DNA from: a virus
Virus record (IMG/VR): IMGVR_UViG_3300045988_117710
Strand: one strand, 5' to 3'
Length of the DNA stretch: 64,000 nt
Shown: one piece after another, positions 4,147-38,146 of the stretch
Numbering within the stretch: position 1 is the first letter of the stretch
How the letters are laid out: the number at the start of each line of letters is the position of its first letter
Notes under the pieces: model-generated
What the model saw: the letters and a program-made list of their open reading frames with translations, nothing else
The model's database searches: none
What the model was told of the DNA's origin: nothing
Made by a program: the position numbers and the translations under genes

Positions 4147-4154
4147 CGTATAAT
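4145..4154 (+). promoter_or_regulatory. class-A promoter-like motif TTCGTATAAT
   Basis: Conserved 10-mer directly after a terminator T-tract. No clear -35 element. Confidence 0.45.
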
Positions 4155-4177
4155 ATTCTAGGAATCATCGAGTTGAT

Positions 4178-4187
4178 GTCGTATAAT
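4178..4187 (+). promoter_or_regulatory. class-A promoter-like motif, second copy (GTCGTATAAT)
   Basis: Tandem copy about 20 nt upstream of the gene that starts at 4206. Confidence 0.4.
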
Positions 4188-4205
4188 TGATTGAGAGGTG
4201 ATATT

Positions 4206-4706
4206 ATGGAAGCTTCTACAGAGACTAAGCAATTGTATAATTATTTACAACCTTTGGGGTTGAGTAATATGAATAGAGCTTTGCTTGCGAAGTTAAATTT
4301 TGATAAGTTTGATTTAGATACAGATTTAGTATTTTGTTGCAAAAGAAGTTGTGCTAATGAAGTTTTCTTAAAGTTATTATTTGCTTTGAAGACAAGTGAT
4401 TCTTATAAGGTTATTCCTTTATCAAGATTGTGTGCAATTAATGATGCCTATAAGACAGGTTATGTTGATCCTGATTATGGAGCATTGGCAGGTATTACTG
4501 ATACTAAGATTTTGTTTATTACTTCTGGAGGGTTTGAAGTTCCTAGTTATGTTGGTAACATTTTAGATGTTTTGATTCAGACTCGTAGACCTGCTGGGTT
4601 AAAGACTTTTGTATTCCATCTAGGAGATAAGACTGAGTTCTTATCATACAAGAGTACTTCTTTAACTAGATTACATTCATTGAGTGTTGGAGGTAGTAAG
4701 GTATGA
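4206..4706 (+). CDS. hypothetical protein, possible helicase loader/accessory
   Basis: ATG at 4206 after GAGAGGTG. Stop overlaps the DnaB-like start (ATGA). Function inferred from position only. Confidence 0.4.
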   Translation: MEASTETKQLYNYLQPLGLSNMNRALLAKLNFDKFDLDTDLVFCCKRSCANEVFLKLLFALKTSDSYKVIPLSRLCAINDAYKTGYVDPDYGALAGITDTKILFITSGGFEVPSYVGNILDVLIQTRRPAGLKTFVFHLGDKTEFLSYKSTSLTRLHSLSVGGSKV

Positions 4707-6220
4707 CGAATAAGGGTAAAGAGAGTCAAGTTGTTGCTAGAAAGTATGAGTTCAAGGATATCTTTGTTAACTTATTTGATAGTGATGAGACTCGAATTAA
4801 TGATTTTATAGGAGCATTAGAATCTAATGAAGTTCTGTATTGGAATGAAGTAGCTGCTTTGAATGGTTTCAAGCAATTACTAAAGGATTCTGGTGGAATT
4901 CCTACTATTGATTTATTTATGACAACTTTTCCAGATTCTAGTGCTGAGTGTGATTCTAGTTTTAAGACTAATGATTTGTTAGGTACTATTCGATTATTCA
5001 TTAGACAAAGAAAGAATATTTTAGCTGCTAATGCTTTAAGTTCATGTGTTAGTGTTGTCATGAGGGATGGAGTTACACCAGAGATTAGTGATGAGATTAG
5101 TAATATTCTTAAATCTGATGTTGTTGAAATTAAGTATGAAAATATCATAGACAGGATTGAAGAAAGATATGAAATGTCTGTTGAGAATTCTGGCATCAAG
5201 ACAGGTATTGAACAAGTAGACCAAGTTATTGGTGGTCTTAAAGCTGGTCAAGTGTCAGTTGTAGCAGGATTCACAGGAATGGGTAAATCTATTTGTTCTG
5301 TTAGTATTATGCATGCGGCTGTTGAACAAGGATATAATGTTTGTTATATTTCTCTTGAACTTAGTGCTGACCATTTAATGTATAATATGATTTCGAGACA
5401 TTCTCTTGAGACTAAGTTCTCAAAGAAGATTGAGCACAGACATCTTAAATCAAAGACTTTAAGTAGAACTGATTGGGATTATGTTAAGTCTGATATTCTA
5501 CCTGATTTGAGAAATATGCCTGGTAAGTTCTATATCCTAGATGAACAAGATATTGAAGGTTATAATTATTATTCCTTTGATAATAAGTTACAAGAGATTG
5601 AGAATTTATGTTTTAAGGAAACTGGTAAAGGTCTTGATTTAATAATTGTTGACCACATTCAGATGTTAGCTTTCTCTGATCAGGGTTCTAAACTTTCAGA
5701 GAATACTGTTATTAATAGATGGTGTAACTATTTCAGAAGTCAGTGTCTAGACTTTCTGAAATCAAAGAGACAGATTCATGTTATTCTGGTTGCTCAGATT
5801 AACCGTCAAGGTTATTTGAAAGCTGCAAGAAATAATGGGATGTATGATATGACTGCTCTTAAGGAAGCAAATGAAATTGAAACTTGTGCATCTGTTATAT
5901 TGGGTATTTATTCTGATACTTCTCTGATTACTTCTAATCAGACTAAGGTTGGTATTCTGAAGAACAGGGATGGTAGTCGTGTTGGAGATGCATATCAAGT
6001 ACCTGCTAACTATCCATATCAATTAATTGGTGGTGTTGGTTCTACTATTAAGACGGTTATGGCAAATGCAACTAGTGATACTCTTAATAATATGTTTGAT
6101 ACTATTGATGCATTTGGTGGAGAGGAAGCTTTCCAAGAAAGTGGTGGCTTTATGCCAGTTGAACAAGAAGATGTTGATTTCGTTGCTGATGATGGTTTTG
6201 GAATCAATGGTTTAATATAG
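4703..6220 (+). CDS. DnaB-like replicative DNA helicase
   Basis: Walker A GFTGMGKS, Walker B IIVDHIQM. RecA-like C-terminal domain with SLELS...ILVAQINRQ motifs and an N-terminal helical domain. 505 aa. Confidence 0.8.
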   Translation: MTNKGKESQVVARKYEFKDIFVNLFDSDETRINDFIGALESNEVLYWNEVAALNGFKQLLKDSGGIPTIDLFMTTFPDSSAECDSSFKTNDLLGTIRLFIRQRKNILAANALSSCVSVVMRDGVTPEISDEISNILKSDVVEIKYENIIDRIEERYEMSVENSGIKTGIEQVDQVIGGLKAGQVSVVAGFTGMGKSICSVSIMHAAVEQGYNVCYISLELSADHLMYNMISRHSLETKFSKKIEHRHLKSKTLSRTDWDYVKSDILPDLRNMPGKFYILDEQDIEGYNYYSFDNKLQEIENLCFKETGKGLDLIIVDHIQMLAFSDQGSKLSENTVINRWCNYFRSQCLDFLKSKRQIHVILVAQINRQGYLKAARNNGMYDMTALKEANEIETCASVILGIYSDTSLITSNQTKVGILKNRDGSRVGDAYQVPANYPYQLIGGVGSTIKTVMANATSDTLNNMFDTIDAFGGEEAFQESGGFMPVEQEDVDFVADDGFGINGLI

Positions 6221-9200: not shown

Positions 9201-10544
9201 ATGAATAATTTAGTGATTGCAAATCCCGAAAGGTTGGATGATCAGTCTTTTAAAATTACTATTGCTGGAAAAGACTATGAATATGAAATTTCAGAAGATA
9301 AGGATATTGATAAAGTAATAGCCAAGTTAGTTCAATGGATTTCAAGAGGAGATGATTCTTTTGGAGGGTTATATGATTATATTAAACGTAGTTTCCAATT
9401 AGTTGGTGAGTACGAGGAACCTGTTGTTGAAGATGAGCTTCCTGAAGAACCAAAATCTATCTTACCATCTGACGGTCAAGATTTAGATGATGTTCAATCT
9501 AATGAACTAGAATTCAAAGTAGATATACTTTCTAGTAGTGAAGTTAGTGTTTCTCTTGGAGAATTTTCTGCAGTATTTAATCTAGCTGGTAATGCAGATA
9601 ATTTTGAGACTGAGTTGAGAGAATTAATTAAAGATGAAATGACTCTTAAAGATAGAATTGATTTAAATACTTTTCTTGTTAAAGAACTCGATACTGATAA
9701 TTCAGTAGATGTTTATAATCTATCTGGTTTGGTTCTTGATCCAAACTTTGAGATAGTTTCTAGTGTTGAAGGTGAAGAACTTACAGATTTAGCTGTGGAT
9801 GGAGAACATGAAGTTCCAGATATTGTTATCGGTGATACAACAGATGAGGTTGATATTCCTAGTGATGATGCCGAGGTTGTTGATACTGAAGAAGTTGTGT
9901 CTGATGAAGATACAGAAGATGATTTAGAAGATGAAGCTCTTAATGCTGAAGAAGATTTAACAGATGATTATGAACCTAGTGAGGATGAAGAGTCTGAAGA
10001 GGATGATTCAGATGAAGAGGATGATGAAGATTCTAAATCAAAGAAGAAATCAAAGAAGAAATCTAAGAAGTCAAAGAAGAAATCGAAGAAGAAATCCAAG
10101 AAAGAATCTTATGATGCTTTTGGTAATCTCTTAACTGAAGATGAGGTGTTTGATGGTGTAATTGATTTACCTGTTGAACCAACTGAAATAGATTTTACAG
10201 ACGAAGAAGTCGAAGATAAGTTTACTCTTGAAGATTTAATTGTTTCTGAAGATTTCCTAAGTAGTTTAAGAGATTTAGGTTTATCTTTATTCAAATTTAC
10301 TAATAAGGATAATAATTTAGAGAATTTATACTTTGTTGGTGGTATTAATAGTAATGATGGTACTCTTTACACTTTAACCTACCAAATGGGAGATTCGTAT
10401 AGTACATTAGATGGAGAATTTGAAGATCTATCTACTAATGAATATGAACTATCTAATATTGAGGACTTAACTATTGTTACTAACTATTTAAGTAAGTTAT
10501 TAGATTTGGTTTATAATAGAGAGTTAGGAGAGGACAATGAGTAA
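9201..10544 (+). CDS. highly acidic protein with a central Lys/Ser (KSKKK) tandem repeat
   Basis: 447 aa, rich in Asp/Glu. A KSKKKSKKKSKKSKKKSKKKSKK block is flanked by DDSDEEDDED. Confidence 0.55.
   Translation: MNNLVIANPERLDDQSFKITIAGKDYEYEISEDKDIDKVIAKLVQWISRGDDSFGGLYDYIKRSFQLVGEYEEPVVEDELPEEPKSILPSDGQDLDDVQSNELEFKVDILSSSEVSVSLGEFSAVFNLAGNADNFETELRELIKDEMTLKDRIDLNTFLVKELDTDNSVDVYNLSGLVLDPNFEIVSSVEGEELTDLAVDGEHEVPDIVIGDTTDEVDIPSDDAEVVDTEEVVSDEDTEDDLEDEALNAEEDLTDDYEPSEDEESEEDDSDEEDDEDSKSKKKSKKKSKKSKKKSKKKSKKESYDAFGNLLTEDEVFDGVIDLPVEPTEIDFTDEEVEDKFTLEDLIVSEDFLSSLRDLGLSLFKFTNKDNNLENLYFVGGINSNDGTLYTLTYQMGDSYSTLDGEFEDLSTNEYELSNIEDLTIVTNYLSKLLDLVYNRELGEDNE
10034..10106 (+). repeat. 12-nt tandem repeat (aagaagaaatca)n encoding the KSKK units
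   Basis: Direct tandem repeats with synonymous third-position variation. Confidence 0.7.
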
Positions 10545-11400
10545 GAAGGTAATTAAGTCTGTTGATGTTTTAGACGATATAAGAGTAAATCCTGAAGAAG
10601 GTAAGAAGACAATTCTTAAGGTTATTGATAAGGATGAGAACAGAGAAGATAGAATGAAGTCAGCTGATTCTGCTGAAGTATTTCCAACTCCTGCTGAACC
10701 AGTTATTAATGAAGCTGTTAGTTCTACATTAAATCAAAATGTTAAGGATTATTTAATTCAAGATTTAACTAAAGAAGATTTTGTTGGTGATGAGGATGTT
10801 AAAGATGTTTTAGATAAGGTTGATATCTTTAAGATTCTTAATTCAGTTGATGGTGATTTAACTGAATCTTATGGTACTAACTATGGAGATATTAATATTC
10901 TATTCTCTAGAAGTTCTAAAGATTGTATCCGTGAGTCAGCTCTTATTGAATACTCTACTTCTGGTAATAAGTCATATGTTTTAGGACTTAATATTTTAGA
11001 AGCGGAAGATAATAAAGTTAACTTTATAGTTAAATCTAGTTATGGTGTTGATATTTATTCTAAAGTTTGTACACCAAATCAAATTGCTAATACTGTTTAC
11101 AGATTCTTGGAAGCAGTTTATTTAAGAGATAAGTTTGCAAGTATTCTTAATGAATCAGTTGATTCTGATAGATGGGGTGAAATCATTAGTGATGTTAATG
11201 AGTTTGCAAAGAATATAGATGCTGGTAAAGATGTTCTTAAGATTAGTTATTCTGAAGATAACTCTAAACCTTTAGAAGTTACTATTGCTAGAGGAACTAA
11301 TAATCAGGTATTCGATGATGTTAGAAAATATATAGAAGATACTTACAGAGATGAAGTTGAAATAACTGATATCGATGATTCAAGTTTCTTACTAAAGTAG
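10537..11400 (+). CDS. hypothetical protein
   Basis: Overlaps the upstream stop. 287 aa. Confidence 0.5.
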   Translation: MSKKVIKSVDVLDDIRVNPEEGKKTILKVIDKDENREDRMKSADSAEVFPTPAEPVINEAVSSTLNQNVKDYLIQDLTKEDFVGDEDVKDVLDKVDIFKILNSVDGDLTESYGTNYGDINILFSRSSKDCIRESALIEYSTSGNKSYVLGLNILEAEDNKVNFIVKSSYGVDIYSKVCTPNQIANTVYRFLEAVYLRDKFASILNESVDSDRWGEIISDVNEFAKNIDAGKDVLKISYSEDNSKPLEVTIARGTNNQVFDDVRKYIEDTYRDEVEITDIDDSSFLLK

Positions 11401-11415: not shown

Positions 11416-14400
11416 ATGAATGGTAATCAATTAATTACAAAGCATTCTGCTAAATTTGATACTGTTGAGAAATCTAAAAGACCTGGAGTTCTAGCTACTT
11501 TGAGAGGTCCTGTTACTGGATGGAAACCTAATCGTAATGGTAGAACTTATTCTAGGGATTTATGGGTTAAAGCATTAAATTCTGATTATGTTAAGGAACA
11601 AGTTGCTCTTAATCATTTTGTTGGTGAAGCAGATCACCCAGAAGAAAGACTTGAACCAGTAATTCAAAATATGTCACACGCTATGAGAGATTTTGAATTT
11701 GATGATGCTAATCAAGAAGTTATTGCTACTATTGATATTCTAGATACTCCATGTGGAAATATGCTTAAGACTTTATATGATTATTCTGGAGCTTTAAGTT
11801 TTTCTACTAGAGGTTCTGGAGATGTTTTAGAAGATGGTGAAGTTGATCCAGAAACATATCAATTATTTGCCATTGATGCTGTTTTAAGACCAAGTTATGC
11901 AACAGCTACTGTTAGAAATCTTTTAACTGAAAGTGAATCTTTACATAAGAATAAAGATGTTAAGAAGGTTCTTGAATCTTATTCTGGTGAGAAAGAATTA
12001 GATGAGTCTGTTGATTGGGATTATTTTAATATATTCCATGATATTAACGATAAATATTTACCTGATTCTGGTGAAGGTGATAATATGGCCACTCAAACTG
12101 TAACAGCTGTTAATAAGTTAGTTTATAAGTGGTATAATGATGGTGATGTATATGATAATTCAACTGCTTCTGGTCTAGATGGTTGGGGAAATGATTTATC
12201 TGATTATGCTAACTGGCTTGCAAAGAATATAGATGGTTGTAAGGATATTCTAGATAGAATTTTTGAAATCCATTATGGTGATAATGGTGCTTATGAAGAT
12301 TTACTTAAGGATTTAGCAAATAATTGTTTAGATGAAAATTTACTTTCTGGTTTAGCTACTCAACCTAAGGAAGGTTCTGTTTATGAATGTTCTGGTGATT
12401 ATTCTTTTGATGAGAGTAGAAACTATGATGAAGAATATGATGAGTCTGAAAACTTAGAAGAGGTTGTTCGTGTATACGATGATGAGAAAGATTATAGTTC
12501 TGAATTAGAGGAAGTATTCAATATTGTTGGTGGTTTTATTAATAATGATTTCAAATCTAATACCAAGGATTATTTAAGATATTCTGGTTCTACTGATCGT
12601 GTAGATAGTAGTAAAGTATTTGATGGTTTAGCTAGTGCATTAGGAGCTGCTGGTTATATTGTTTCTAAAGATCGTGTTTCTCATGCACATAATATTGGTA
12701 ACAATAATGCCTATGAAATATTCAAGGATTCTGAATGTATTGGATTCTTAAATGTTAATAGTGGTATGTATGGTGAAGCATATGTATATGTTGAGAACCT
12801 ATCTAATGGTAGAGTTGGTGGTGCTTGGGAATTACATTCTAGAGGTACTTCTACTTTCAAAGAAGGTGAAGAATTAGGTAAGGTTAATACTAAAACTGAT
12901 TTATCAAAGAAATATATCTTTAATGACAAGGGTGTTGAAAGAACTGTAACTGAAGTTGAACCACTTGCTTATAGAGATGGATATAAGTTTAGAGAGATTC
13001 TAGATAATGGTTCAGTAGGTAAAGTTGTTCATACTATGAGTAAAGCTGATTTTGATTCTTTAAAGGAATTAACTGAAGATGCTGATAGTGTTGTAGCAAT
13101 TCCTGATGATGTTAAGGAAGCTGTTGAAACTGAAGTTTATGATGATAGAAACATTGATGTTAGAAGTTCTATGTTCAAAGGTAATGATTTTGTAGTTGAA
13201 GCTAGAAATGAGTTATCTGAAGATGAATTTACTAAGATTGTTGATAGAATTCAATATCATTTCAATAATTATGGTATTGTTTATGACTCTATTGAAGATG
13301 ATGACAATAATGTAATTGCTATTGATTGTGGTATGTCTGCTAGTGCTTATGAAGAGTACAAAGCAAATTCTGATGATTATACTCTTAATGATGAATCATT
13401 TACTATGTATAATGCTGATACAGATAAAACTGTTAGAGTTTACAAAGATGGTGGTAAATGGGTAGATGAAGATGGTAATCGTTATATGAGTTACCTAACT
13501 AAGTCTGATATTAAGAAGTATTTCAAAGGTAATTGGGTTGAATTAGATGAGTCTGAACAATTAAATGAGTATGGTGATACTAAAGATTATTCAGAAGATA
13601 TTCAAAAGTTATTTAAGAAATGGTTTAAGGATAATGCTGATTTAGGTATTCGTGCTTGGCAGGCAATGACTGATTCATATCATTTAGATATTGAAACTAT
13701 GGATAAGGGTGAAGGTTCTGAAAGAAGAAAACTTTACAAGGTTGTTAATAATTCACCATTTGTTGAAGTTGAAGATTGGGCTGATGAGATTGGTGAGTAC
13801 ATTGCAGATAATTTACATTCATTAAAGTATATCAAACATACTTTCAATGATAAGTCATTCTTTAGTGATGATGAAACTGCTGGTGATATTACTTGGTACT
13901 TTGTTCAACAAATTGGTATGCCAGATTTTGGTGATAATATATTTGATTCAGAGAAGTTATCTGAAGACAATGAACCTAAGACTACTAAAGAGTTTAGAAT
14001 TATAGATACTGAAACTGGTAAGATTCTTAAGGTATTTAAAGATGATGAAGAATCTAAAGGTTATGAAGAAATGAGAGCCATGGGTGAAGAACTTAAGAAG
14101 GCAGGTAAAGAAGATAACTTAATCTATAAAGAGTTTAAGGTTAAGAACAAACCTGAAAGACTTAAGGAAGATTCTACTTGGGCTGAGATTATGATTGATA
14201 GAGCTTTAGAGTCTGGTGTTAGAAAGACACAATATCAAGATGTTGATGGTGTTAAGGATCAGTATTATGTAGTTGCTAATTTCCAAGACGTTGGAACTAG
14301 AGCAGATGCAAGAAAGTATTGTAAAGCTCAAGGATGGAGTGCTGTTAATGATTCTACTTTAGATAAGGGAGTTATGTATAGATATCCTTTAGTTATTTAT

Positions 14401-15249
14401 ATTCCTGCTGATAAGCTTCCAGATGGTGTTCAAGTAATTAATGAAGCTGGTGTTAATTTAGATGTTAGTGCTGGTGTTGATTTACCAGATGATGCTGTTA
14501 GTGGTATTATAAGTGCTCTACCTGCATTACTTGCTTCTGATAAACCAGATTTTGATACATTCTGTGAAGAGAATTATGAAGCAATTAATAATGCTTATGA
14601 TGAATGTAAGGCAAGTGATTTAGGTATTTCAGTAGAAGAGTATTGGGCTATGGATGAACCTGTAGATCCTAAATACTGGGAGATGGTTGCTAGAGATATG
14701 TATGAAGATAGTAATAGTTTAGTTGAAGATGTTAATGATTCTCAAGAATACATTGATAAATTCAATGAACTATATAGCAAGTATTGTGTTGCTAGTAAAG
14801 AAGATGAAGAAGTTATTAAGTCTGAAGTGGTTGATTTACTTACTAATGCACCTGTAGGAACTGCTTTATATAGACTTTATAAAGATACTTCTAGTGGATG
14901 GACTAGTCGTGGTTCTTATTCTAATACTAGAACTGAAATTCATGAATATCTAAAGTCAGGTGAAAATGAATGGACAATTAATGGTCGTAAGAAAAATGAC
15001 ATGAGAGATGCTATGTTATCAATCTTATATAATCCTGGAGAGTTCATGACTAAGGAAGAAGCAGAAGCTCAAAAGAAAGAGCAATCTAAGAATGATACTT
15101 CTTCTCGTAGAGAGATTGTAAATGTTGGTACTGATTCAGCTGGCAATCCTGTAGGTAAGTCTACTAATACTGTAACTTATCCAAATAGAGAAGTTGAGTC
15201 TGTTGATTTCTTGGATGATTACTTTGCATATCATAAAGGTAACTTCTAG
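11416..15249 (+). CDS. putative prohead protease fusion protein: N-terminal HK97-family (S78/U35-like) prohead serine protease domain plus a ~1100-aa acidic extension
   Basis: Residues ~20-135 fit the prohead-protease pattern: G-x-(A/V)-x-x-W...R-x-G-x-x-x-x-x-x-W-x-K-x-L, then L-N-H (candidate catalytic His67), then G-A-L-S-F-S-T-R-G (candidate catalytic Ser). The remainder is Asp/Glu-rich and scaffold-like. C-terminus DDYFAYHKGNF. Confidence 0.45.
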   Translation: MNGNQLITKHSAKFDTVEKSKRPGVLATLRGPVTGWKPNRNGRTYSRDLWVKALNSDYVKEQVALNHFVGEADHPEERLEPVIQNMSHAMRDFEFDDANQEVIATIDILDTPCGNMLKTLYDYSGALSFSTRGSGDVLEDGEVDPETYQLFAIDAVLRPSYATATVRNLLTESESLHKNKDVKKVLESYSGEKELDESVDWDYFNIFHDINDKYLPDSGEGDNMATQTVTAVNKLVYKWYNDGDVYDNSTASGLDGWGNDLSDYANWLAKNIDGCKDILDRIFEIHYGDNGAYEDLLKDLANNCLDENLLSGLATQPKEGSVYECSGDYSFDESRNYDEEYDESENLEEVVRVYDDEKDYSSELEEVFNIVGGFINNDFKSNTKDYLRYSGSTDRVDSSKVFDGLASALGAAGYIVSKDRVSHAHNIGNNNAYEIFKDSECIGFLNVNSGMYGEAYVYVENLSNGRVGGAWELHSRGTSTFKEGEELGKVNTKTDLSKKYIFNDKGVERTVTEVEPLAYRDGYKFREILDNGSVGKVVHTMSKADFDSLKELTEDADSVVAIPDDVKEAVETEVYDDRNIDVRSSMFKGNDFVVEARNELSEDEFTKIVDRIQYHFNNYGIVYDSIEDDDNNVIAIDCGMSASAYEEYKANSDDYTLNDESFTMYNADTDKTVRVYKDGGKWVDEDGNRYMSYLTKSDIKKYFKGNWVELDESEQLNEYGDTKDYSEDIQKLFKKWFKDNADLGIRAWQAMTDSYHLDIETMDKGEGSERRKLYKVVNNSPFVEVEDWADEIGEYIADNLHSLKYIKHTFNDKSFFSDDETAGDITWYFVQQIGMPDFGDNIFDSEKLSEDNEPKTTKEFRIIDTETGKILKVFKDDEESKGYEEMRAMGEELKKAGKEDNLIYKEFKVKNKPERLKEDSTWAEIMIDRALESGVRKTQYQDVDGVKDQYYVVANFQDVGTRADARKYCKAQGWSAVNDSTLDKGVMYRYPLVIYIPADKLPDGVQVINEAGVNLDVSAGVDLPDDAVSGIISALPALLASDKPDFDTFCEENYEAINNAYDECKASDLGISVEEYWAMDEPVDPKYWEMVARDMYEDSNSLVEDVNDSQEYIDKFNELYSKYCVASKEDEEVIKSEVVDLLTNAPVGTALYRLYKDTSSGWTSRGSYSNTRTEIHEYLKSGENEWTINGRKKNDMRDAMLSILYNPGEFMTKEEAEAQKKEQSKNDTSSRREIVNVGTDSAGNPVGKSTNTVTYPNREVESVDFLDDYFAYHKGNF

Positions 15250-15302: not shown

Positions 15303-16388
15303 ATGAGTACTCATTGTGGTATAGGAATTAAACGTAAGAATGGTGCTGTTGATGCTACTTATTGTCATTTTGATGGATATCTTGATGGTGTTGGTGAGAA
15401 TCTTAAGAATTTCTTTAGAGATGCTGATAAGGTAAGTAATCTAGTTAGTATGGGTGATTTAAGAGGTATTAGTGATTCTGGTGAAGTTGAAGCTTTCGAT
15501 GATGAAGTTGGTTTTGATGACAAACATTTCAGATCTGTAGAAGAGTTTCTTCAAAGTGATTTAGGAACTTTAGAATATACTTATTTATTTGATGAAGATA
15601 CTAATAGATGGTATTTCCTAGGTGGAGAGGATCCAGAAACTGATATTTTTGATGGTTCTTTAGGAATGTATCATTTAGATAGAGAATCTTTAGAGGAAGA
15701 TGATAAGTCAACTTTCGAGATATTTAGAAGAACTTATCCTAGAGGACAAAATTCTTATGAAGTAGTTATTGATGAAACTATTTATAGAGATGGACGTGGT
15801 AGAAGACATAGTGACCATAAGACTTATAAGGTTTATAAGAATGGTGAACAAATTTTATTTACTTCAGTTCCTCAAACTTATAATAAGTGTTTAAGAAATA
15901 TTGAAGCTGGTAAGTATGATTTTATGTCTGTTAAAGAGATTTCTAATTCTCTTACTGGTGTTAATGAAAGTGAGTTCTATGTTAAGGAATTCAATCAAGA
16001 TGGAACTAATATAGATTATGTTGAGTTTGATAGTCAACATGAAGCAGAAGATTATGCAAGTTCTTTAAATAAGAAGACAGGACATGAAGTTGCTGTTTAT
16101 ATGAGTTCTAATGATGAATGTATTTCTCTTTATGATAAGTTAGATGAACATTCTTTAAAAGACTTAGTTGCTGATAATGATAGTGAGGCAATGAGAAAGT
16201 TAATTAGTTATTGTGAAAATTTTGGTACTAATGAAGTTTGGGAAGAAACTTTAAAACAATTACTAAAATATGTTTCTGAAGATGTTATTGAAAATTATAT
16301 TCATTATGAATTGAATGATTTAGTTTCTGATGAAGTTCCAGAAAGTATTACTGATGACTATTTTGATTTCCATAATGGAAATTATTAA
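15303..16388 (+). CDS. hypothetical protein sharing a C-terminal DDYF-x-FH-x-GN-[FY] motif with the upstream protease-fusion protein
   Basis: C-terminus DDYFDFHNGNY, compared with DDYFAYHKGNF in the previous gene. Confidence 0.5.
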   Translation: MSTHCGIGIKRKNGAVDATYCHFDGYLDGVGENLKNFFRDADKVSNLVSMGDLRGISDSGEVEAFDDEVGFDDKHFRSVEEFLQSDLGTLEYTYLFDEDTNRWYFLGGEDPETDIFDGSLGMYHLDRESLEEDDKSTFEIFRRTYPRGQNSYEVVIDETIYRDGRGRRHSDHKTYKVYKNGEQILFTSVPQTYNKCLRNIEAGKYDFMSVKEISNSLTGVNESEFYVKEFNQDGTNIDYVEFDSQHEAEDYASSLNKKTGHEVAVYMSSNDECISLYDKLDEHSLKDLVADNDSEAMRKLISYCENFGTNEVWEETLKQLLKYVSEDVIENYIHYELNDLVSDEVPESITDDYFDFHNGNY

Positions 16389-16414: not shown

Positions 16415-17887
16415 ATGAAATTATTAAGTAATGACAGACCCTTTGATGTTTGGTCTAAAGCAACTAGTATTCTCTATAGAGCTGTGGCGCATACTTTAGG
16501 TCCTAATGGTGCTAATACAGCTGTTGTATATGGAGATAGATTAGAATCTAATGCTAAGTTTAATATTATTAATGATGGTAAATCTATTATTGATAATTTA
16601 ACTAGTGAAGAAGCTGTTGTGGCTTGTGCTTTACAAACATTGAAAGAGTCTGTTCTTTCAACTAACAATAATGCAGGTGATGGTACTACTAGTACTATTG
16701 TTATGTTGCATGGTTTAGTTTCTGATTTGAATAATTATTTTGATGTTGATAAGGATTCTATTAAGTTATGTTCATTGGTTAGAAGAATCAAGAAAGAGTT
16801 ACTTGATATTCTTCCAAGTATTACTGAAGATGTGTCTATTGATGATGTTTTCAATATTGCAACTACCAGTTTAGGTTCTGATGAGTATTCTTCTTTGTTT
16901 GATGAAGCTTTCAGATTTGTTGGGGAGAATGGTAAGGTTCTTCTTGAGAGAACTACTGGTGATGAGTGTGTTGTTGAGAAGTTAGATGGTGTTTCTTTTG
17001 ATCGTGTTGGTCTTGTTGCAGAGTTACTTCTTGATGATATTGGAACTATTAATAAGACAGTTGATGCTAGGTCAATTATTCTAGATGGAGATATTTCTTC
17101 ATTCAGTCAGATATCAAAGATTCTTTTAGCAGGTAAGACATCTGATGTTCCTATTGTAATGTACTTTACGAAGATGACTCAAGAGGTTTTCCAATTGATG
17201 CTTCAGAATATTGTTAAGTCTGATATGAAGATAATTCCTGTTTCTCTTGAAGGTTATGGTCAAGAGAAAGTAAGATATATTAAGTTACTTGAATCTGTAA
17301 TTGGTCATGATGCTGTTAAGATTGGTGACTTGGCTGGGGTTCAAGATTTATCTGATGTGAATCATTATATTTTTAATTCTGATGCGATGATGGTTCGTCC
17401 ATTGGATATGGAGAAATTTGAGGAAGTAAAAGACCAATTAAGGTTGAATATTTCTTCAAAGACTGCTATTATTAAAGTAGGTGCTGGTAATGCTGTACTC
17501 CAAGAGGAATTATTCAAGAGATTTGAAGATGCTGTGTATTCAGTGTCAAATTCTCTTAAATTTGGTCGTTGTTTAGGGGGAGGGGTTAGTTATATTACTT
17601 TGGCAGATAAGTTTGCTGAAGGGGCTGATTCTTCGGTTTCTAGTTGGATTAAGAATGCTATGCGATGTGTATACAAGTTGTTACTTGAAAATTGTGATTT
17701 GACTTTTGAGGATAATGGTACTTATTTATTACCTAAGTTTGATGCTGAAACTGATTCTTGGTCTTTGAGTGATGAATTGGTTGTATATGATTCTTATAAG
17801 GTAATTGAGCAAGTAGTTTCCAATAGTTTTGATATGTTATACTCAATTCTATCGGTAAAAGCATTTATTCTTGATCCAAAACGTTAA
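16415..17887 (+). CDS. GroEL-like group I chaperonin (phage-encoded Cpn60 homolog)
   Basis: 490 aa. Aligns with GroEL at TLGPNGANTAVV (GroEL VTLGPKGRNVVL), NDGKSI (KDGVSV) and AGDGTTSTIVML (AGDGTTTATVLA), with a later GGGV motif. No GroES-like gene adjacent. Confidence 0.7.
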   Translation: MKLLSNDRPFDVWSKATSILYRAVAHTLGPNGANTAVVYGDRLESNAKFNIINDGKSIIDNLTSEEAVVACALQTLKESVLSTNNNAGDGTTSTIVMLHGLVSDLNNYFDVDKDSIKLCSLVRRIKKELLDILPSITEDVSIDDVFNIATTSLGSDEYSSLFDEAFRFVGENGKVLLERTTGDECVVEKLDGVSFDRVGLVAELLLDDIGTINKTVDARSIILDGDISSFSQISKILLAGKTSDVPIVMYFTKMTQEVFQLMLQNIVKSDMKIIPVSLEGYGQEKVRYIKLLESVIGHDAVKIGDLAGVQDLSDVNHYIFNSDAMMVRPLDMEKFEEVKDQLRLNISSKTAIIKVGAGNAVLQEELFKRFEDAVYSVSNSLKFGRCLGGGVSYITLADKFAEGADSSVSSWIKNAMRCVYKLLLENCDLTFEDNGTYLLPKFDAETDSWSLSDELVVYDSYKVIEQVVSNSFDMLYSILSVKAFILDPKR

Positions 17888-26204: not shown

Positions 26205-26234
26205 AAAGGGACTGGTTCTAGTCCCTTTATTTAT
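26205..26234. terminator. intrinsic terminator
   Basis: aagggact-ggttct-agtccctt hairpin, then T-tract. Confidence 0.6.
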
Positions 26235-26239
26235 ATATT
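26232..26239 (+). promoter_or_regulatory. class-B promoter-like motif TATATATT(ATTTTAGTTAA)
   Basis: Immediately upstream of the first MNKLFES-family gene. Confidence 0.4.
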
Positions 26240-26267
26240 ATTTTAGTTAATATTGAGGAGGATTTCA

Positions 26268-26576
26268 ATGAATAAGTTATTTGAATCTGTAGAAGGTTGT
26301 GACAAATATATTCTTTTAGAAAATGAATATCCTACTTCTATGAGTAGAGAGGAATATATTAGTACTTTAAAATCTAAAGTAAACAAGCTTGCAGATGAAT
26401 TTGCTAGTTTAGCTAATTTCTTTAATTCTTATATTGAAGATTCTGCTACTGGTGAAAGTATTGATTGTAATGAGTTTATTTGTATAGCTCAAGAAGAGTA
26501 CCCATTTGAAAATAGTTTTGATGAGAAAGCATATGAGTTTTCAAACTGGGCTGATAAGATTAATGAAATTAAGTAG
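26268..26576 (+). CDS. MNKLFES-leader family protein 1 (103 aa)
   Basis: True start is ATG 26268 after GAGGAGG (the track ORF begins at TTG 26253). N-terminus MNKLFESVEGCDKY. Confidence 0.6.
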   Translation: MNKLFESVEGCDKYILLENEYPTSMSREEYISTLKSKVNKLADEFASLANFFNSYIEDSATGESIDCNEFICIAQEEYPFENSFDEKAYEFSNWADKINEIK

Positions 26577-26585: not shown

Positions 26586-29500
26586 ATGAACAAGTTATTT
26601 GAATCTGTTGATAATTTATTTGATTCTGGTAAGAGTCTTATTAATGAAGATTATCGTGATGATGTTATTAATGATTTAGGTATTGAACCTGGTTCTGATG
26701 AAGAAGCACAAGTTGATGAAATCCTTAATACAGTTCCAACTGTTTATGATGTTTTCACTTTATCTCAAGTTGATGTTAATGAGTATAAGTCAGATCTTTA
26801 TACTACTGTAGAAGATGAAGACCAAGCTTATGATATAGTTGCTGAACTTGGAGCTCAAGGTATTAATGCTTTTGTAGAAAGTAGAGATGCTAATGAAGAT
26901 GTTATAGTTCCTAACAATTTCTTATCTGGTCTTTATGCTAGGGATTTGAATGAATCTACTGAAGGGTTAAGTAAAGAAGATAAGATTTGTCGTTTAGAAG
27001 ATAAGATTAAGGAATGTAAAGATAGAATTGAAGAGATTGGTAATACTGAATTCTTCGATGATGGTTCTTATGAAGCAGGTTTAGAGTTAGAAGATAGAGC
27101 AATGGAAAGAGCTTCTCTTGAGTATGCTATTTCTGAATATCAAAAGGAAATAGATGAACTTAAAGGTGAAACTATTAATGAAGGTAGTAAGTTTGATTTA
27201 TATTCTATCAGAGGAGAAATCAGAGATGATGAAACTGGTAGATTAATGCTTCATACTAAGAATAAGAATAATGGGTTAGTTGGTTGTGCAAATTTCTTTG
27301 GTGATGGTTCAGATATGGTTACTGTTTACGAAGGTAATGGTGATGGTTCTGATGACAAGAGTATGGGATTCGATGAGTTCCTAGCAAACTATGATTATGT
27401 TCTTGCTGATGAAGATGAACAACCATTTGGTGTTACTGAAGCTTCTGAAGAGAAAGTATTTGTTAAGAAAGTTAAAGGTCCTAATGGTCAATTCTTTGAT
27501 GTTTATAAGAAAGATGGTAAGTTTGTGGATGAATATAATAATGAACTTACTGCAGAAGAATTAAAAGATTATAAGTTAGTTGAAGATGAATCTAATGGTT
27601 CTACTGCTATTTTATATCAAGTTACTCCTGGTAAGACTAGAGAATATGGTTTTGAATCTTTAAAGATGTTAGATAAGTTTGGTATTGAGCTTAGTTTAGA
27701 TAATTATACTGAAGTTGCTAATATTGATTATAGTAAGTATACAGATGCTACTGATACTAATGCAATTCTAGAAGCAATATTCAGAGAAGGTAATACTAAT
27801 CAAGATATGAGAGTTGAATTCCCTACTATGAGATCTGTTTCTATGTCTGATATTGTTTTATTAGATGGTAGATATTACTATTGTGATGACTTTGGTTGGA
27901 CAGATGTTACTGATCGTTTAACTGGTGTTAATGAGTCTGAAGGTGGAGATTTAAAATCTCAAGTTGTTGAGTATTTAACTTCTAAATATGGTGAAGGTTT
28001 TGAATTAGAAGACAATGTTAATGGTTTTACTAATCAAGATGAAATTATTGATTCTATTGTTAATTCTTATGAAGGAAATGAAAATTTAACTGTTGCTGAG
28101 TTTATAGATTCTTTAATTGAACCTCATGGTTTAATTGTTGTTAAGTCTAAAGGTTTATCTGAAGGTACTTCTGCTAAACGTATAGCAAGATATAATGAAT
28201 TTGATAATGGTAGAGTTTTACATTCTTGGAAAGATATGACAGATGAAGAAGCTGAAGAGCTTGCTAAACAAAAGTCAATTGAAGATCCAAATAATGTTTA
28301 TTATGTATGTAATGATAATGTTATGAATCCTACTTCTGATAAGGTTTGGTATAATGGTAAGTCTTATGATTTCAGTGATGTTAAGTTTAGTGAAACTGGT
28401 ACTTACTGTGAATCTGAAGAAACTGATCCTAGATTAGATACTTTTGCTGAGTTATATTATAAGTATCAAGATGGTGAATCTCATGAATGGACAAGAGAAG
28501 AAGTTATTGATTGGATTAATGATGAAATTAAGTTAGGTGATACTTCATTTACTTTAGATGATGAAACTATTGATTTATTATTAGGTTTCCAACATGATTT
28601 ACATCAAGCTGATATAGAAGATTTAGATGAAGCTTCTAAACCTTTAGTTAAAGATAAGTTCTATATTGATGGTGTTGGTCCAGAGTTTGATGGTTACCAC
28701 GATCCTAGTGTTCTTTGGAATGGTTGGGAATGTCCATTCTTTACTAAAGAGGTAGCAGATGAGATAACTAAAACTTTTACTGATGAGTCTGTTACTTTTG
28801 AATATGATGAAGCTGGTAAGAAATATATAATTACTTGGAATGGTGAAGATACTGAAGAAGTTCCTATGACACGTCGTGAAACTGTTGATGGTGAGTTAGA
28901 TTTATTCCCATTAGGTTATTATGGTTGGTGTTGGAATAAAGCTTCTGATGATTTAGAAGAGTCTAATAAATTAGATGAAACAGCTTGGAAGGGTACTCTT
29001 AAGTCTGGTTCTGCTTTAAGAGCCCTAATTAATAATCCAGATGATACTATTGAATATTATCAAGCTGTATTAGATAAGATTAAAGATGTTTGTAATGAAG
29101 CAATTCCAATGTGTGATGATGAATATTATGCTAATGGATTCCAATCTTTAATAGATGATATTGAATGTATTTATTATGATGAAGAATTAGATGAAGGTAA
29201 TGTTGATTATATTCTAGATGGTCTTTGGGATTGGGCTGATGGTGCTAAGTTATTCGTTGCCTTAGGTGAATCTGAAGTAGTTATGGAAGAAGATTCTAAT
29301 TATACTAATAAATATCGTTGTGTTACTGCAGGATATGATACTGTAGAAACATTTGATTCAAAGGATGATGCAATTGCATTTGCTAAAGAGAATGACAGGG
29401 TGTATTCAGTAATGTCTGATATTTATCAAGGTGATATGTTAATTAGTGTTGGATTAAATGATATTTGGTCTAAGTATGATGAAGATTTAACTGAAGCTTC

Positions 29501-29816
29501 TAGTGTAGATGGTTTAGTTACTAAGTTTGTTGAGTTACCATATGGTGATTTCAAAGCAAATAATGCCATTGGTGTTCTTAATGATGGTACAGTGTTTTGG
29601 GTAGATAGTGAGAATGAAGCTTATTCAGTTCCTTGTTCTTACGATGAGTTAAAGAGAGCAATGTATGGTAAAGAACAAGATGATTGGATGGAATTTTCTC
29701 AAAGTTTCACTAGAATAGAAGACCCACTAGAAACTAAGATTATGGTTGCTATTGGACGTTACTCTGAAGATGTTCTAGATTATCATGAAACTTTTAAAGA
29801 TGGGTTACCATTCTAA
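26586..29816 (+). CDS. MNKLFES-leader family protein 2, giant member (1076 aa)
   Basis: N-terminus MNKLFESVDNLFDSGKSLINEDYRDDVINDLG. Acidic, with a coiled-coil segment (ICRLEDKIKECKDRIEEI...). No recognisable catalytic motif. Confidence 0.6.
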   Translation: MNKLFESVDNLFDSGKSLINEDYRDDVINDLGIEPGSDEEAQVDEILNTVPTVYDVFTLSQVDVNEYKSDLYTTVEDEDQAYDIVAELGAQGINAFVESRDANEDVIVPNNFLSGLYARDLNESTEGLSKEDKICRLEDKIKECKDRIEEIGNTEFFDDGSYEAGLELEDRAMERASLEYAISEYQKEIDELKGETINEGSKFDLYSIRGEIRDDETGRLMLHTKNKNNGLVGCANFFGDGSDMVTVYEGNGDGSDDKSMGFDEFLANYDYVLADEDEQPFGVTEASEEKVFVKKVKGPNGQFFDVYKKDGKFVDEYNNELTAEELKDYKLVEDESNGSTAILYQVTPGKTREYGFESLKMLDKFGIELSLDNYTEVANIDYSKYTDATDTNAILEAIFREGNTNQDMRVEFPTMRSVSMSDIVLLDGRYYYCDDFGWTDVTDRLTGVNESEGGDLKSQVVEYLTSKYGEGFELEDNVNGFTNQDEIIDSIVNSYEGNENLTVAEFIDSLIEPHGLIVVKSKGLSEGTSAKRIARYNEFDNGRVLHSWKDMTDEEAEELAKQKSIEDPNNVYYVCNDNVMNPTSDKVWYNGKSYDFSDVKFSETGTYCESEETDPRLDTFAELYYKYQDGESHEWTREEVIDWINDEIKLGDTSFTLDDETIDLLLGFQHDLHQADIEDLDEASKPLVKDKFYIDGVGPEFDGYHDPSVLWNGWECPFFTKEVADEITKTFTDESVTFEYDEAGKKYIITWNGEDTEEVPMTRRETVDGELDLFPLGYYGWCWNKASDDLEESNKLDETAWKGTLKSGSALRALINNPDDTIEYYQAVLDKIKDVCNEAIPMCDDEYYANGFQSLIDDIECIYYDEELDEGNVDYILDGLWDWADGAKLFVALGESEVVMEEDSNYTNKYRCVTAGYDTVETFDSKDDAIAFAKENDRVYSVMSDIYQGDMLISVGLNDIWSKYDEDLTEASSVDGLVTKFVELPYGDFKANNAIGVLNDGTVFWVDSENEAYSVPCSYDELKRAMYGKEQDDWMEFSQSFTRIEDPLETKIMVAIGRYSEDVLDYHETFKDGLPF

Positions 29817-29829: not shown

Positions 29830-30162
29830 ATGAATAGTTTATTTGAAAGTGTTGACGCTTGTTTTGAATCTGATGTTATAGTTGAATCAGATTCAAAACT
29901 TGGTTCTATTTTTGTTGCTGAGGTTGGTTACAATGGTGTAGTCGGTACTTGTAGAGGTGCTGGTTCTACTCCTGAAGAAGCCAAAGCAAATGTTATTAAA
30001 TTCTTCAAGCAAGTTTATCCTAGTGTATTAGAAGATTTATTAACTAAAGAAGATTATCAAGATGTTTCTGAAGATAAAGCTCTTGAAGATTGGTATGGTA
30101 TCAATGTATTCGATTTAAGTTCTGGAGCTACTTGTGAGAGTGGAGAAACTTTAAAAGGATAA
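29830..30162 (+). CDS. MNKLFES-leader family protein 3 (110 aa)
   Basis: N-terminus MNSLFESVDACFESD. RBS TAGGAGG. Confidence 0.6.
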   Translation: MNSLFESVDACFESDVIVESDSKLGSIFVAEVGYNGVVGTCRGAGSTPEEAKANVIKFFKQVYPSVLEDLLTKEDYQDVSEDKALEDWYGINVFDLSSGATCESGETLKG

Positions 30163-30165: not shown

Positions 30166-30495
30166 ATGAATAAGTTATTTGAAAGTATAGATAATTTATT
30201 TGAATCTGATATTCTAACTCTAGATGACTTCCTTAGTCATCTAGATGCCTATATGGCAGAGCAATCTATTTTCTTTGAACCATTAGGTGGTTATATTGTC
30301 TATGATGGAGAGTATAGGTTTGTTTATTATGAATTATTAGATACTAATACAACTTATAGTCGTGATGCAAAGAGAAAGCATTATCGTATATTAAGTTATG
30401 ATGGTTCTACTTTTGTTGAGAATCGAATTACAGCTCCTATGTATAATGACTATATTAGATTAGGCATGGTTAGGGAGTATAGTAGAGAGGTATAG
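30166..30495 (+). CDS. MNKLFES-leader family protein 4 (109 aa)
   Basis: N-terminus MNKLFESIDNLFESD. Confidence 0.6.
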   Translation: MNKLFESIDNLFESDILTLDDFLSHLDAYMAEQSIFFEPLGGYIVYDGEYRFVYYELLDTNTTYSRDAKRKHYRILSYDGSTFVENRITAPMYNDYIRLGMVREYSREV

Positions 30496-30504: not shown

Positions 30505-31002
30505 ATGAATAAGTTATTTGAGTCTGTTGATGACTTATATGAATCTGGAAGAAGTTTAGTTGTTGAAGATACTGAAGATTTTGTAGATGATGTTATTACT
30601 GATCCTTATGATTTAGGGTTTACTGAAGAAGATTTACAAAATAATCTTAATGTAAAGTTTACTGAATATGGTGAATTAGATAGTGCTGAACAAGAAGACT
30701 TTCCAGAATGTGATGCAGTATTATATTTTGATGTTTACTATGGAGATTCTAAAGTTGGTGAAACTCAATGTTATGGTGCTAAAGAAGATAATGTTGAAGA
30801 GTATTTTCCTCAAGTAATTGAAAATCTTGTTGGTAATACTTTTGGGTTAGACTTTAGTGAAATTAAGAAAGAAGAAAAACCTTTAGGTGAATCTATTGAA
30901 TATTGTTTAGTTTTACCAGAAGTAAAATCTGATGAAGAAATGAATAAGGTAATTGAAGCTCTTAAGGATTTAGGTTACGAAGCTTATTCTTGGACTCGTT
31001 AA
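30505..31002 (+). CDS. MNKLFES-leader family protein 5 (165 aa)
   Basis: N-terminus MNKLFESVDDLYESGRSLVVEDTEDFVDDVITD. The leader homology with member 2 extends to about 35 aa. Confidence 0.6.
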   Translation: MNKLFESVDDLYESGRSLVVEDTEDFVDDVITDPYDLGFTEEDLQNNLNVKFTEYGELDSAEQEDFPECDAVLYFDVYYGDSKVGETQCYGAKEDNVEEYFPQVIENLVGNTFGLDFSEIKKEEKPLGESIEYCLVLPEVKSDEEMNKVIEALKDLGYEAYSWTR

Positions 31003-31005: not shown

Positions 31006-31035
31006 AAGACTAGTTAATCTAGTCTTTTTCTTTTG
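31006..31035. terminator. intrinsic terminator
   Basis: aagactag-ttaat-ctagtctt hairpin, then TTTTCTTTT. Confidence 0.6.
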
Positions 31036-37684: not shown

Positions 37685-38146
37685 ATGGAGAAGATTGCAA
37701 GTTTTACTGTAGATCATACAGTTTTGTTACCTGGAGTGTATATTAGTAGGGTTGATGAAGATATTGTTACTTATGATATTAGAATTAAGCGACCTAATAC
37801 TGATGATTTGATGTCTAATGAGGAGATGCATTCGGTTGAGCATTTATTGGCTACGGCATTGAGGAATTCTTATCTTAAGGATGATGTTATTTACTTTGGT
37901 CCTATGGGTTGCCAAACGGGTTATTATTGTCTTATGAGAGTGGATTCTGGGTTTAATTTTATGAAGTTTCTGAAGGATGTTATGATTTATGCTCTTTCTT
38001 TTGATTCTATGCCAGGTCAATCTGCTGTTGAGTGTGGTAATTATAAGAATTTAGATTTAGAATTAGGTAAGTCTTGTATTAAGAATTACTTGAATTTACT
38101 TGATTCTTTTGAGGATATTTGTGAATATCCAAAGAAACTTGATTAA
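37685..38146 (+). CDS. luxS: S-ribosylhomocysteine lyase (LuxS) homolog
   Basis: SFTVDHT matches the LuxS N-terminus. Metal-binding HxxEH is present as HSVEH. The catalytic-Cys context GPMGCQTGYY matches SPMGCRTGFY. CGNY matches CGTY. 153 aa. Confidence 0.8.
   Translation: MEKIASFTVDHTVLLPGVYISRVDEDIVTYDIRIKRPNTDDLMSNEEMHSVEHLLATALRNSYLKDDVIYFGPMGCQTGYYCLMRVDSGFNFMKFLKDVMIYALSFDSMPGQSAVECGNYKNLDLELGKSCIKNYLNLLDSFEDICEYPKKLD

Follow-up and report, generated by a model that had tools for sequence, protein, structure and literature searches.

A mosaic acidic protein with a shared N-terminal leader as putative prohead-processed cargo of an uncultured myovirus

Introduction

How should a phage protein be read whose opening residues recur on six other proteins of the same genome and whose long remainder resembles none of them? 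The question is raised by an open reading frame (ORF) at positions 26586-29816 (+ strand) of a 64,000-nucleotide stretch of viral DNA, IMG/VR record IMGVR_UViG_3300045988_117710, which we refer to throughout as the window. The ORF is real: it is initiated by ATG, is preceded by a GGAGG ribosome-binding site and encodes 1076 amino acids (aa). An initial annotation, made from the DNA letters and their translations, saw in its product a candidate giant effector of novel or cryptic activity, suggested to carry a processed pro-region and to be injected into the host, in concept like T4 Alt or the N4 virion RNA polymerase. Our analysis leads to a more structured finding than was first seen, in which a mosaic architecture and protease motifs in the linkers, both absent from that annotation, take the leading parts. 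We hold with high confidence that the protein is built as a mosaic, with some 12 compact domains in a chain and an architecture of the polyvalent type. On balance, we favor the explanation that it is a capsid-targeted polyvalent cargo, processed by the prohead protease, whose small host-directed modules would be delivered with the DNA.

Results

A mosaic chain of compact domains

Two AlphaFold (AF2) models, one of the full length (predicted local distance difference test, pLDDT, 69) and one of residues 676-1076 (pLDDT 74), together divide the target protein into ~12 compact domains that are separated by coil or low-confidence linkers. All of the module coordinates that follow are on the + strand, and each linker motif is given with its residue number. 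Module 1 (residues ~22-101, 26649-26888) is an alpha/beta unit (AF2 pLDDT 68-96) and lies within the stretch, residues 1-133, that is shared with protein P0022; the linker LNES(121) follows. Module 2 (~130-192, 26973-27161) is a helical hairpin or coiled coil, with AF2 helices at 130-153 and 162-192 and a weak CCDC-167 match, and it ends before INEG(197). Module 3 (~202-275, 27189-27410) is modeled as a small beta-rich domain, has distant homologs over residues 201-285 (P0062, P0132, P0148 and P0156) and leads into VTEAS(283). A small beta unit in the AF2 model, module 4 (~294-330, 27465-27575) is absent from P0015, P0016 and P0017 and is followed by LVEDESNGS(331-339). Module 5 (~340-446, 27603-27923; AF2 pLDDT 89-97) is YodL-like and precedes VNESE(448), and module 6 (~454-520, 27945-28145), defined from the AF2 model and covered by P0075 over 446-524, precedes LSEG(524).

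In the second half of the chain, module 7 (~531-608, 28176-28409) is an abundant unit with the signature KRIARYxEFDNGxVLH and runs into CESEETD(608-614). Module 8 (~615-674, 28428-28607) consists of three helices (AF2 pLDDT 56-70), is covered by P0089 over 608-690 and is followed by LDEAS(680). Module 9 (~687-785, 28644-28940; AF2 pLDDT 86-97) belongs to phrog_9945, with the pattern WNGWxCPxFTK...WCW, and ends before LEES(790). Module 10 (~808-892, 29007-29261) is helical in the AF2 model; its homologs P0023, P0066 and P0033 end in ...LFVAL, and LGESE(893) follows. Module 11 (~906-961, 29301-29468) has a beta-alpha-beta arrangement (AF2 pLDDT 63-78), is present in P0016, is missing from the 686-aa variants described below and is joined by LTEAS(968) to module 12 (~978-1066, 29517-29783; AF2 pLDDT 85-96), a C-terminal domain that is kept in all variants and has homologs in P0021, P0045, P0095 and P0124.

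The homology searches divide the protein in the same manner. A word-indexed search with the whole protein returned only 20 matches, nearly all of them close relatives. An exhaustive HMMER search returned 736 proteins at E ≤ 0.001, and its matches map to discrete segments (1-133, 201-285, ~339-447, 446-524, ~520-610, 608-690, ~686-790, ~791-899 and ~966-1071). Module 7 accounts for ~100 of the best 150 matches of the exhaustive search, and a 105-residue query for this abundant module gave a single match. Only one domain of the target has a curated name: module 5 matches the YodL-like family of Pfam (PF14191) over residues 343-441 (E = 1.6e-8; 35.8 bits against a cut-off of 24). Residues 691-798 match PHROG 9945 (E = 8e-12), and solo homologs of this module 9 occur in Bacillus SPO1-like phages and in one Xanthomonas phage, the stand-alone forms ending at WCW. 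Most of the other modules belong to no named family.

Close relatives of the target, 90-99% identical where they align, differ from it by the presence or absence of whole domains. A common 686-aa variant is without residues 615-965, the missing block beginning at module 8. P0015 is without 308-681 and P0017 without 291-420, while P0016 has an additional block of ~100 residues placed directly after the leader.

No enzyme signature was found in the target in Pfam, PHROGs, NCBIfam, PADLOC or PDB sequences, nor by Foldseek against PDB and BFVD; NCBIfam and PADLOC returned nothing for it at all. In the fold searches, run twice against PDB and also against BFVD, nothing matched at E ≤ 0.001, and the weak matches to Tudor/SH3-like folds and to small uncharacterised phage proteins are uninformative on function. 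A built-in peptidase of the zincin-like MPTase kind was likewise not found in any library or fold search. On these points the initial annotation was borne out in its reading by eye of an internal coiled coil (the hairpin of module 2) and of a sequence free of recognisable enzymatic motifs. The remote-homology and fold checks that it proposed yielded the YodL-like domain and PHROG 9945 from the sequence side and nothing above threshold from the fold side. Its picture of one giant effector is better replaced by ~12 small non-enzymatic modules, one of them YodL-like.

A hydrophobic-x-Glu-small motif in the linkers

The linkers between these modules carry a recurring motif, of which LFE-S in the leader is a further copy. 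The pattern [LIV]-x-E-[SAG] was set a priori. It occurs 13 times in the target against 4.3 expected, a count that none of 5000 shuffles reached (0/5000). Eleven of the 12 internal copies fall in AF2 coil or low-pLDDT linkers, which make up 25% of the residues (P = 2.5e-6). These linkers are rich in E, S and G, and a composition control in which residues were shuffled within the linkers still set 11 observed copies against 1.8 expected (0/5000). Elsewhere in the window, enrichment was seen in two proteins only, a 254-aa leader-bearing protein (6 against 1.2 expected) and a 287-aa ORF (5 against 1.0), both described below; the DNA polymerase, the terminase, the portal and the other large proteins of the window showed none.

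In the relatives, the breakpoints of the module indels fall within the motif (an arrow marks a junction or a predicted cut throughout): FGVTEAS↓KPLVKDK, LGESEVVEEASSVDG (in short, LGESEVVEEASS) and CESE↓DLDEASSVD. In relatives at 41-85% identity the motif is retained through substitutions (LSEG to ITEA, VNES to ITEA, LNES to LEES) as the neighboring residues drift, and at the end of module ~808-892 the LGES of the target is replaced by LTEA in the unrelated carrier P0033. Among 92 distant carriers of module 7 (~531-608), the motif stands ≤10 residues upstream of the module in 54%, against a background of ~4.5% per 5-residue bin, and essentially never inside it. The upstream copy is found for internal copies of the module and also for N-terminal ones, where it takes the form of a Met-initiated tag, e.g. 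MKIKKLNEG↓T. Within the first ~13 residues, the motif occurs in 29% of 138 distant carriers and in 11% of control windows (P = 4e-9). Three of the linkers of the target share 12-18 nt of identical DNA and, therefore, these junctions may also promote recombination.

The leader family

The leader, MNKLFESVDNLF(E/D)S, is common to the target and to six other ORFs of the window. The seven begin MN(K/R/S)LFES(V/I)(D/E/N), mostly with xLFES next; the stretch that all of them share is ~14 residues long, and the bodies beyond show no significant similarity. In the target, the leader occupies residues 1-14 (26586-26627, + strand; MNKLFESVDNLFDS), with an AF2-predicted helix over 2-10, the canonical site LFE↓S ending at E6, and a degenerate second copy, LFD-S. 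The first site, at residues 4-7, is present in 7/7 leader proteins; a second L(F/Y)E↓S at residues 11-14 is present in 4/7, the target having LFD-S instead. The pattern L-x-E-S-[VI]-[DEN] occurs 11 times in the proteins of the window against 0.3 expected, far beyond chance. The codons of the leader differ synonymously among the members, including TCT/AGT switches at serine, and apart from the ribosome-binding site the DNA upstream of the leader ORFs is unrelated. Because of these two observations a DNA-repeat origin is ruled out, and the leader is conserved at the level of the peptide.

Five of the seven genes form a cluster on the + strand, bracketed by terminator-like hairpins at 26205 and 31006 (the latter at 31006-31026, closing the cluster). 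They are a 102-aa member with the shared leader (26268-26576), the target, members of 110 aa (29830-30162) and 109 aa (30166-30495), both absent from the relatives L001-L003 and L006, and a 165-aa member (30505-31002), which has a looser N-terminal stretch of ~35 residues in common with the target. The other two, also on the + strand, are a 482-aa member with an N-terminal zinc ribbon (53861-55309) and a 254-aa member (55389-56153), the first gene of the sheath/tube operon, with a promoter-like element (class B, below) at 55355. The target is the largest of the seven and is acidic, both as initially annotated: its isoelectric point (pI) is 4.07 and D+E amount to 23.3%, in a window whose proteome is acidic overall (median pI 4.86). 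The statement that the 165-aa member has almost exactly the same first ~35 residues was too strong; the first 9 are identical, and an alignment of the first ~45 residues, with gaps, has 25 identities in 51 columns.

The leader is also found outside the window. A 272-aa protein on the - strand of L005 (4191-5009), a 241-kb IMG/VR contig of 36% GC, has an identical MNKLFESVDD start, and the leader therefore reaches at least one other jumbo phage. A degenerate DNA pattern for the leader matched only two loci in IMG/VR, one of them by chance.

Two further observations concern the members outside the cluster. The counterpart of the 254-aa protein in another relative (L011 2837-4084) is 415 aa long; variation by whole blocks therefore extends to a second member of the leader family. 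A family-8 glycosyltransferase gene (53152-53868) lies directly upstream of the gene of the 482-aa member, with a slight overlap.

The prohead protease and its surroundings

The presumed processing enzyme is encoded on the + strand at 11416-15249. Residues 3-210 of this ORF form an S77/gp21-type domain (Pfam PF03420, Peptidase_S77, E = 1e-6, above the cut-off; PHROG 207, head maturation protease, E = 9e-32), followed by an extension of ~1080 residues. The only PDB sequence match is T4 gp21 (5JBL), in which an Ala of the chain aligns with the His of the GEADHP segment of the window's enzyme, at the place where the catalytic His is expected; the catalytic residues of T4 gp21 are H85 and S140, and its preference is for I/L-x-E with the cut after Glu (PMC12991175). 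Three copies of the linker motif, LTES170, VLES185 and LDESVD195, are packed directly after the catalytic domain, in the region at which proteases of the gp21 family cleave themselves (PMC5694885). Immediately upstream, the 287-aa ORF (10537-11400, + strand), whose five copies of the motif include LNESVD, is a candidate scaffold or core substrate. A co-occurrence check in the 22-kb locus of the distant cousin L008 did not find an S77 protease.

The C-terminal extension of the protease is without family matches and far longer than is typical of gp21-like proteases. A few [LIV]xE[SAG] motifs lie within it, and it could itself be a further chain of cargo. The protease ORF and the next, 361-aa, ORF end in similar aromatic tails (FLDDYFAYHKGNF at 15190-15249 and ITDDYFDFHNGNY at 16329-16388, each followed by a stop), which may be a C-terminal interaction motif; the target had been considered as a third bearer of this tail, and its resemblance is only loose, the convincing pair being the protease ORF and its neighbor. 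Before the 287-aa ORF stands a 447-aa ORF (9201-10544), hyper-acidic and with a long basic (KKS)n tract.

Promoter-like elements and genome context

Two classes of promoter-like elements are found in intergenic sites of the window (4146-61378), both on the + strand only. Class A (TCGTATAAT) precedes the genes for the primase, the single-stranded DNA-binding protein and a clamp-loader-like protein, and the portal operon. Class B, T[AG]TATATT-N2-7-TAG[TA][AT], occurs 12 times on the + strand and 0 times on the - strand, and 10/12 copies lie 21-37 nt before a start codon. We read class B as a putative late element. It stands before the leader cluster (26232), the terminase (31045; ATG at 31075), the lysin operon and the operon of the 254-aa member, the sheath and the tube. 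In front of the cluster, a terminator-like hairpin (26205-26228) is directly followed by the element TATATATTATTTTAGT (26232-26247), the two spanning 26205-26247 on the + strand. This arrangement suggests that the leader cluster is co-expressed late with the virion genes. The end of the cluster is separated from the terminase gene by 30 nt, and the portal follows the terminase.

The window, of 31% GC and with every gene on the + strand, is that of a myovirus with a T4-like morphogenesis core. It encodes a gp20-like portal (Pfam Portal_T4, E = 3e-26), a gp19-like tail tube, a sheath, a baseplate wedge and a UvsX-like recombinase. Its large terminase is ~30% identical to the best match in a cultured phage and a near-identity DNA search of GenBank phages gave no matches; the phage is distant from all cultured ones. 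Near-identical contigs of 179-185 kb were found, originating from human-associated metagenomes. Strong GGAGG ribosome-binding sites, together with sporulation-type genes such as SpoVS in a cousin phage, indicate that the host is probably a Firmicute.

Discussion

The explanation that we favor for the target can be laid out in four steps. It would be made late, alongside the virion proteins. The ~14-residue leader, a helix with LFE↓S, would then bring it into the core of the assembling prohead in the fashion of the T4 capsid-targeting sequence (CTS). There, a gp21-type (S77) protease would remove the leader and cut after the Glu of [LIV]-x-E-[SAG] in almost all of the linkers between domains. 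This would set free ~8-12 folded acidic domains, each of about 6-18 kDa, that would be retained in the head. Finally, ejection would carry the domains into the next host together with the DNA, and there, being made in advance, they might bind or inhibit host factors; for the YodL-like module the MreB cytoskeleton is indicated as a possible target, and other modules occur as solo early genes in other phages. Our confidence is not the same for each part. That the leader is a signal for prohead targeting and processing seems probable to us; for cleavage at the linkers we put the chances at about even; and the host-directed roles, such as YodL on MreB, are put forward tentatively. An injected effector with a processed pro-region, as initially annotated, is in outline supported, at the level of sequence, by the I/L-x-E site of the leader, the S77 gene, the class-B element and the precedents of T4 and SPN3US.

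Several points weigh against this explanation. Packaging, cleavage, ejection and host targets are what we infer, and the whole case is built from sequence and predicted structure. The C-terminal third is modeled with less confidence, and the definition of linkers there is generous. Shared descent or recombination scars could lie behind part of the recurrence of the motif within the target. In the leader, the second site has Asp in place of Glu, and a cut at E6 would take off 6 residues only. The pairwise match of the protease to T4 gp21 is weak (E = 0.5), and the specificity assigned to it is an extrapolation from distant homologs. The major capsid protein, the natural positive-control substrate, was not recognisable in the window or in extensions of 10 kb on either side, and neither of two late ORFs considered for it matched a PDB sequence. 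The portal gene lies behind a class-A and not a class-B element. Lastly, the cargo is strongly acidic (pI 4.1), whereas the internal proteins of T4 are basic, which makes co-packaging with DNA less obvious.

The target could instead be a cytoplasmic multi-domain accessory protein that is not packaged, a host-takeover factor of polyvalent style acting in the producing cell, with the leader being recognised by the phage's chaperonin or, as an N-terminal degron, by its Clp/HslV-like unfoldase-protease, or aiding translation initiation, and with the motif being a preferred flexible linker. We judge this unlikely, and it survives best among the alternatives. The cargo is acidic, unlike the internal proteins of T4, a Bacillus phage has at least one of the modules as a solo gene of the early, cytoplasmic type, and the lineage encodes a GroEL-like chaperonin and a Clp_N-AAA/proteasome-like pair, possible readers of an N-terminal tag. 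A passive linker, however, would not be expected to keep a fixed hydrophobic residue at P3 within polar, disordered segments (11 against 1.8 expected), and the motif is also clustered right after the S77 domain and in the ORF next to it. The cluster has its promoter-like element in common with the terminase, lysin and sheath/tube genes, and its location beside terminase and portal fits polyvalent proteins that are packaged (PMC5512222).

Were the target brought into the prohead as proposed, it might still be a component of the core or scaffold, degraded through the leader and linker sites and cleared like T4 gp22, gp67 and gp68, with no role in the next host. This alternative, quite unlikely in our estimation, draws on the same logic of targeting and protease sites as the explanation that we favor; the target is acidic like the T4 scaffold proteins, has the helical hairpin at 130-192 and is putatively co-expressed with head genes, and the motif-rich 254-aa member and 287-aa ORF may themselves be of scaffold type. 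Scaffold peptides of T4 leave through the pores of the capsid (PMC9958956), and the target consists mostly of compact globular domains (pLDDT 85-97) that, once cut, would at 6-18 kDa be too big for such pores. Moreover, whole modules vary among phages that are 90-99% identical and two members of the cluster are absent from relatives; this is the behavior of an accessory rather than a structural gene. The modules also recur together with ArdA, LPD11 and YodL domains.

Very unlikely, as a full account of the linker motifs, is that they are recombination scars only, short DNA junctions (ACT GAA GCT TCT and the like) for the shuffling of modules, with no function at the protein level. The 12-18 nt common to three linkers and the breakpoints placed exactly there are what such scars would leave, but divergent relatives keep the motif with different residues and codons (the same LSEG, VNES and LNES exchanges as above), and it precedes homologous modules in unrelated phages at 30-60% identity, where DNA homology is gone. 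A role as scar and a role in the protein can coexist. Removal of the leader by Prp, the host protease that in Firmicutes trims the N-terminal leader of ribosomal protein L27 and of some phage capsid or scaffold proteins at MLxx(D/N)LQ(F/L)F'A(S/H)KK (PMC9405229), has in its favor the probable Firmicute host and the precedent of phage head proteins that bear a short, conserved leader at the N-terminus (PMC9405229), but we reject it on motif mismatch, the leader being without LQ and F'A and the internal linker motifs containing zero Phe, in a phage that has an S77 protease of its own.

The explanation that we favor, processed cargo of the capsid, has a close likeness in T4. The cargo of T4 acts in the next host, IPI against GmrSD and Alt on RNA polymerase, and the T4 CTS is MKTYQEFIAE, from which the leader MNKLFESVDNLFES differs. 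A CTS of ~10 aa is carried by the internal proteins and Alt (PMC9026906, PMC9958956); in both T4 and SPN3US, short conserved N-terminal capsid-targeting propeptides stand on unrelated cargo (PMC9026906, PMC5694885). The CTS proteins IPI-III and Alt, processed by gp21, have like the target family a short (~10-20 aa) N-terminal propeptide that ends in hydrophobic-x-Glu, and the genome of the target likewise encodes a protease of the gp21 family (S77), a portal like gp20 and a tube like gp19. The CTS cargo of T4 is non-essential and variable, as is the case here. The differences are equally clear. T4 cargo is basic, whereas the target is strongly acidic and without an ADP-ribosyltransferase domain, and it is a chain of 12 modules with additional internal sites, unlike the CTS cargo. 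Searches of Pfam, PHROGs, NCBIfam, PDB sequences and GenBank phages gave no homolog of T4 IPI/II/III or Alt, and no polymerase domain of the kind of the N4 virion RNA polymerase was seen in Pfam, NCBIfam, the PDB sequence search or Foldseek; the likeness to Alt or to the N4 enzyme that had been drawn is conceptual only.

A second likeness is to the head-internal proteins of phiKZ, 201phi2-1 and SPN3US (proteases gp175/gp245), whose propeptides are cut after Glu at several sites each, as is proposed for the target. The SPN3US protease removes the N-terminal propeptides of ejection proteins and cleaves itself C-terminal to its catalytic domain (PMC10052503, PMC5694885), and gp245 cleaves at A-x-E, favoring Ser at P1' (PMC10052503). 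The diverged ejection paralogs gp53 and gp54 of SPN3US have an identical 15-residue N-terminus, MANFVKSKLARESVE, with protease motifs, which its authors liken to the T4 CTS (PMC5694885); the layout of MNKLFE↓SVD in the leader is the same. In contrast, the phiKZ-type motifs have a small P3, as (S/A/G)-x-E or A-x-E, and the P3 of the target is hydrophobic and T4-like; phiKZ-type propeptides are mostly long, at 111-254 aa, and the leader has ~14 residues. The target is without detected homology to this group, and we see no evidence here of a phage nucleus or a virion RNA polymerase.

The body of the target invites comparison with the polyvalent proteins (Iyer, Burroughs, Anand, de Souza, Aravind 2017). 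Both phages and conjugative elements have such proteins, which combine several domains and are described as entering the host along with the DNA; in phages, they are encoded beside portal and terminase genes (PMC5512222). As in the target, they consist of many unrelated, shuffling small domains. They hold 2-15 independently occurring domains, and the target has ~12 in the AF2 models, with separate sets of homologs; the phage-type context is present as well, in the cluster beside terminase and portal. Domains of the polyvalent network are found in the target itself, as YodL, and among 71 carrier proteins of its other modules, as LPD11 (1e-32), ArdA, YodL in 4 and Methyltransf_23 in 8. YodL is listed among the domains of polyvalent proteins of Firmicute conjugative elements, and has a genetic link to MreB (PMC5512222). 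In Bacillus subtilis, YodL is a small stand-alone cellular protein with these genetic links, and in the target the YodL-like domain is one bead of a chain. The solo homolog of module 687-785 in Bacillus phage Bc431v3 lies in an array of small genes with SigA-type promoters, a layout typical of early host-takeover genes. Polyvalent proteins are predicted to need processing into units and to be delivered with the DNA; many of them have a built-in MPTase or a recognised enzyme domain, a frequent and not universal feature that the target is without, and for the target we propose processing in trans at the linkers by the prohead protease, and an N-terminal targeting leader. The target would combine head cargo processed by a protease, in the style of T4 and phiKZ, with the architecture of a polyvalent protein.

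If the explanation holds, it connects two lines of thought that were kept apart until now, T4-style capsid targeting and processing on the one hand and the polyvalent proteins of mobile elements on the other. The sequence rule of leader plus [LIV]-x-E-[SAG] linkers would predict the virion cargo of uncultured jumbo phages, and about a dozen small, fold-novel domains would become candidate anti-host or anti-defence factors. Such arsenals would diversify fast by the swapping of beads at protease-site junctions, and YodL, with its link to MreB, would be extended from conjugative elements to phage-delivered proteins. A 14-residue capsid-loading tag for the capsid of a gut phage would be useful in phage engineering. 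A broader possibility, doubtful at this point, is that the tag belongs to a modular grammar of cargo cassettes, in which hydrophobic-x-Glu-small suffices to load and deliver any small host-directed domain, the protease releasing it in trans. A cassette could be a solo gene with an N-terminal leader or a bead in a polyprotein, and the DNA of the tag would double as a recombination junction. This grammar would apply in the present lineage and perhaps in many uncultured Firmicute jumbo phages with tags of the MK..LNE(S/A/G) type. If true, it would amount to a general and evolvable system of protein delivery and a trans-processed class of polyvalent proteins, and would offer a practical means of loading foreign proteins into phages other than T4.

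Other observations in the window and its relatives

A GroEL/Cpn60-like chaperonin is encoded at 16415-17887 (Pfam E = 7.5e-25), close to the protease gene, and is present also in the distant cousin contig L008. Just past the right end of the window in the relatives (L010 11331-18596) lie genes for TelA and for a Clp_N-AAA+ ATPase adjoining a proteasome/HslV-like protein; the same region encodes a homolog of ribosomal protein L9 and a Thg1-like enzyme. A 153-aa ORF at 37685-38146 is syntenic with a gene of the relatives that is annotated with a LuxS domain (autoinducer-2 synthesis), and the gene at 62086-63258 specifies a complete S-adenosylmethionine synthetase in which each of the three Pfam domains is present; L008 has one too. 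Finally, the relatives carry inteins in two genes whose copies in the window are without them. Their DNA polymerase A, with Intein_splicing and LAGLIDADG domains, has 1204 aa (832 in the window), and their large terminase with intein has 1353 or 879 aa (616 in the window); the intein-bearing loci lie at 1684-5298 and 12644-16705 of L001/L002/L003 and at 3493-6132 of L006.

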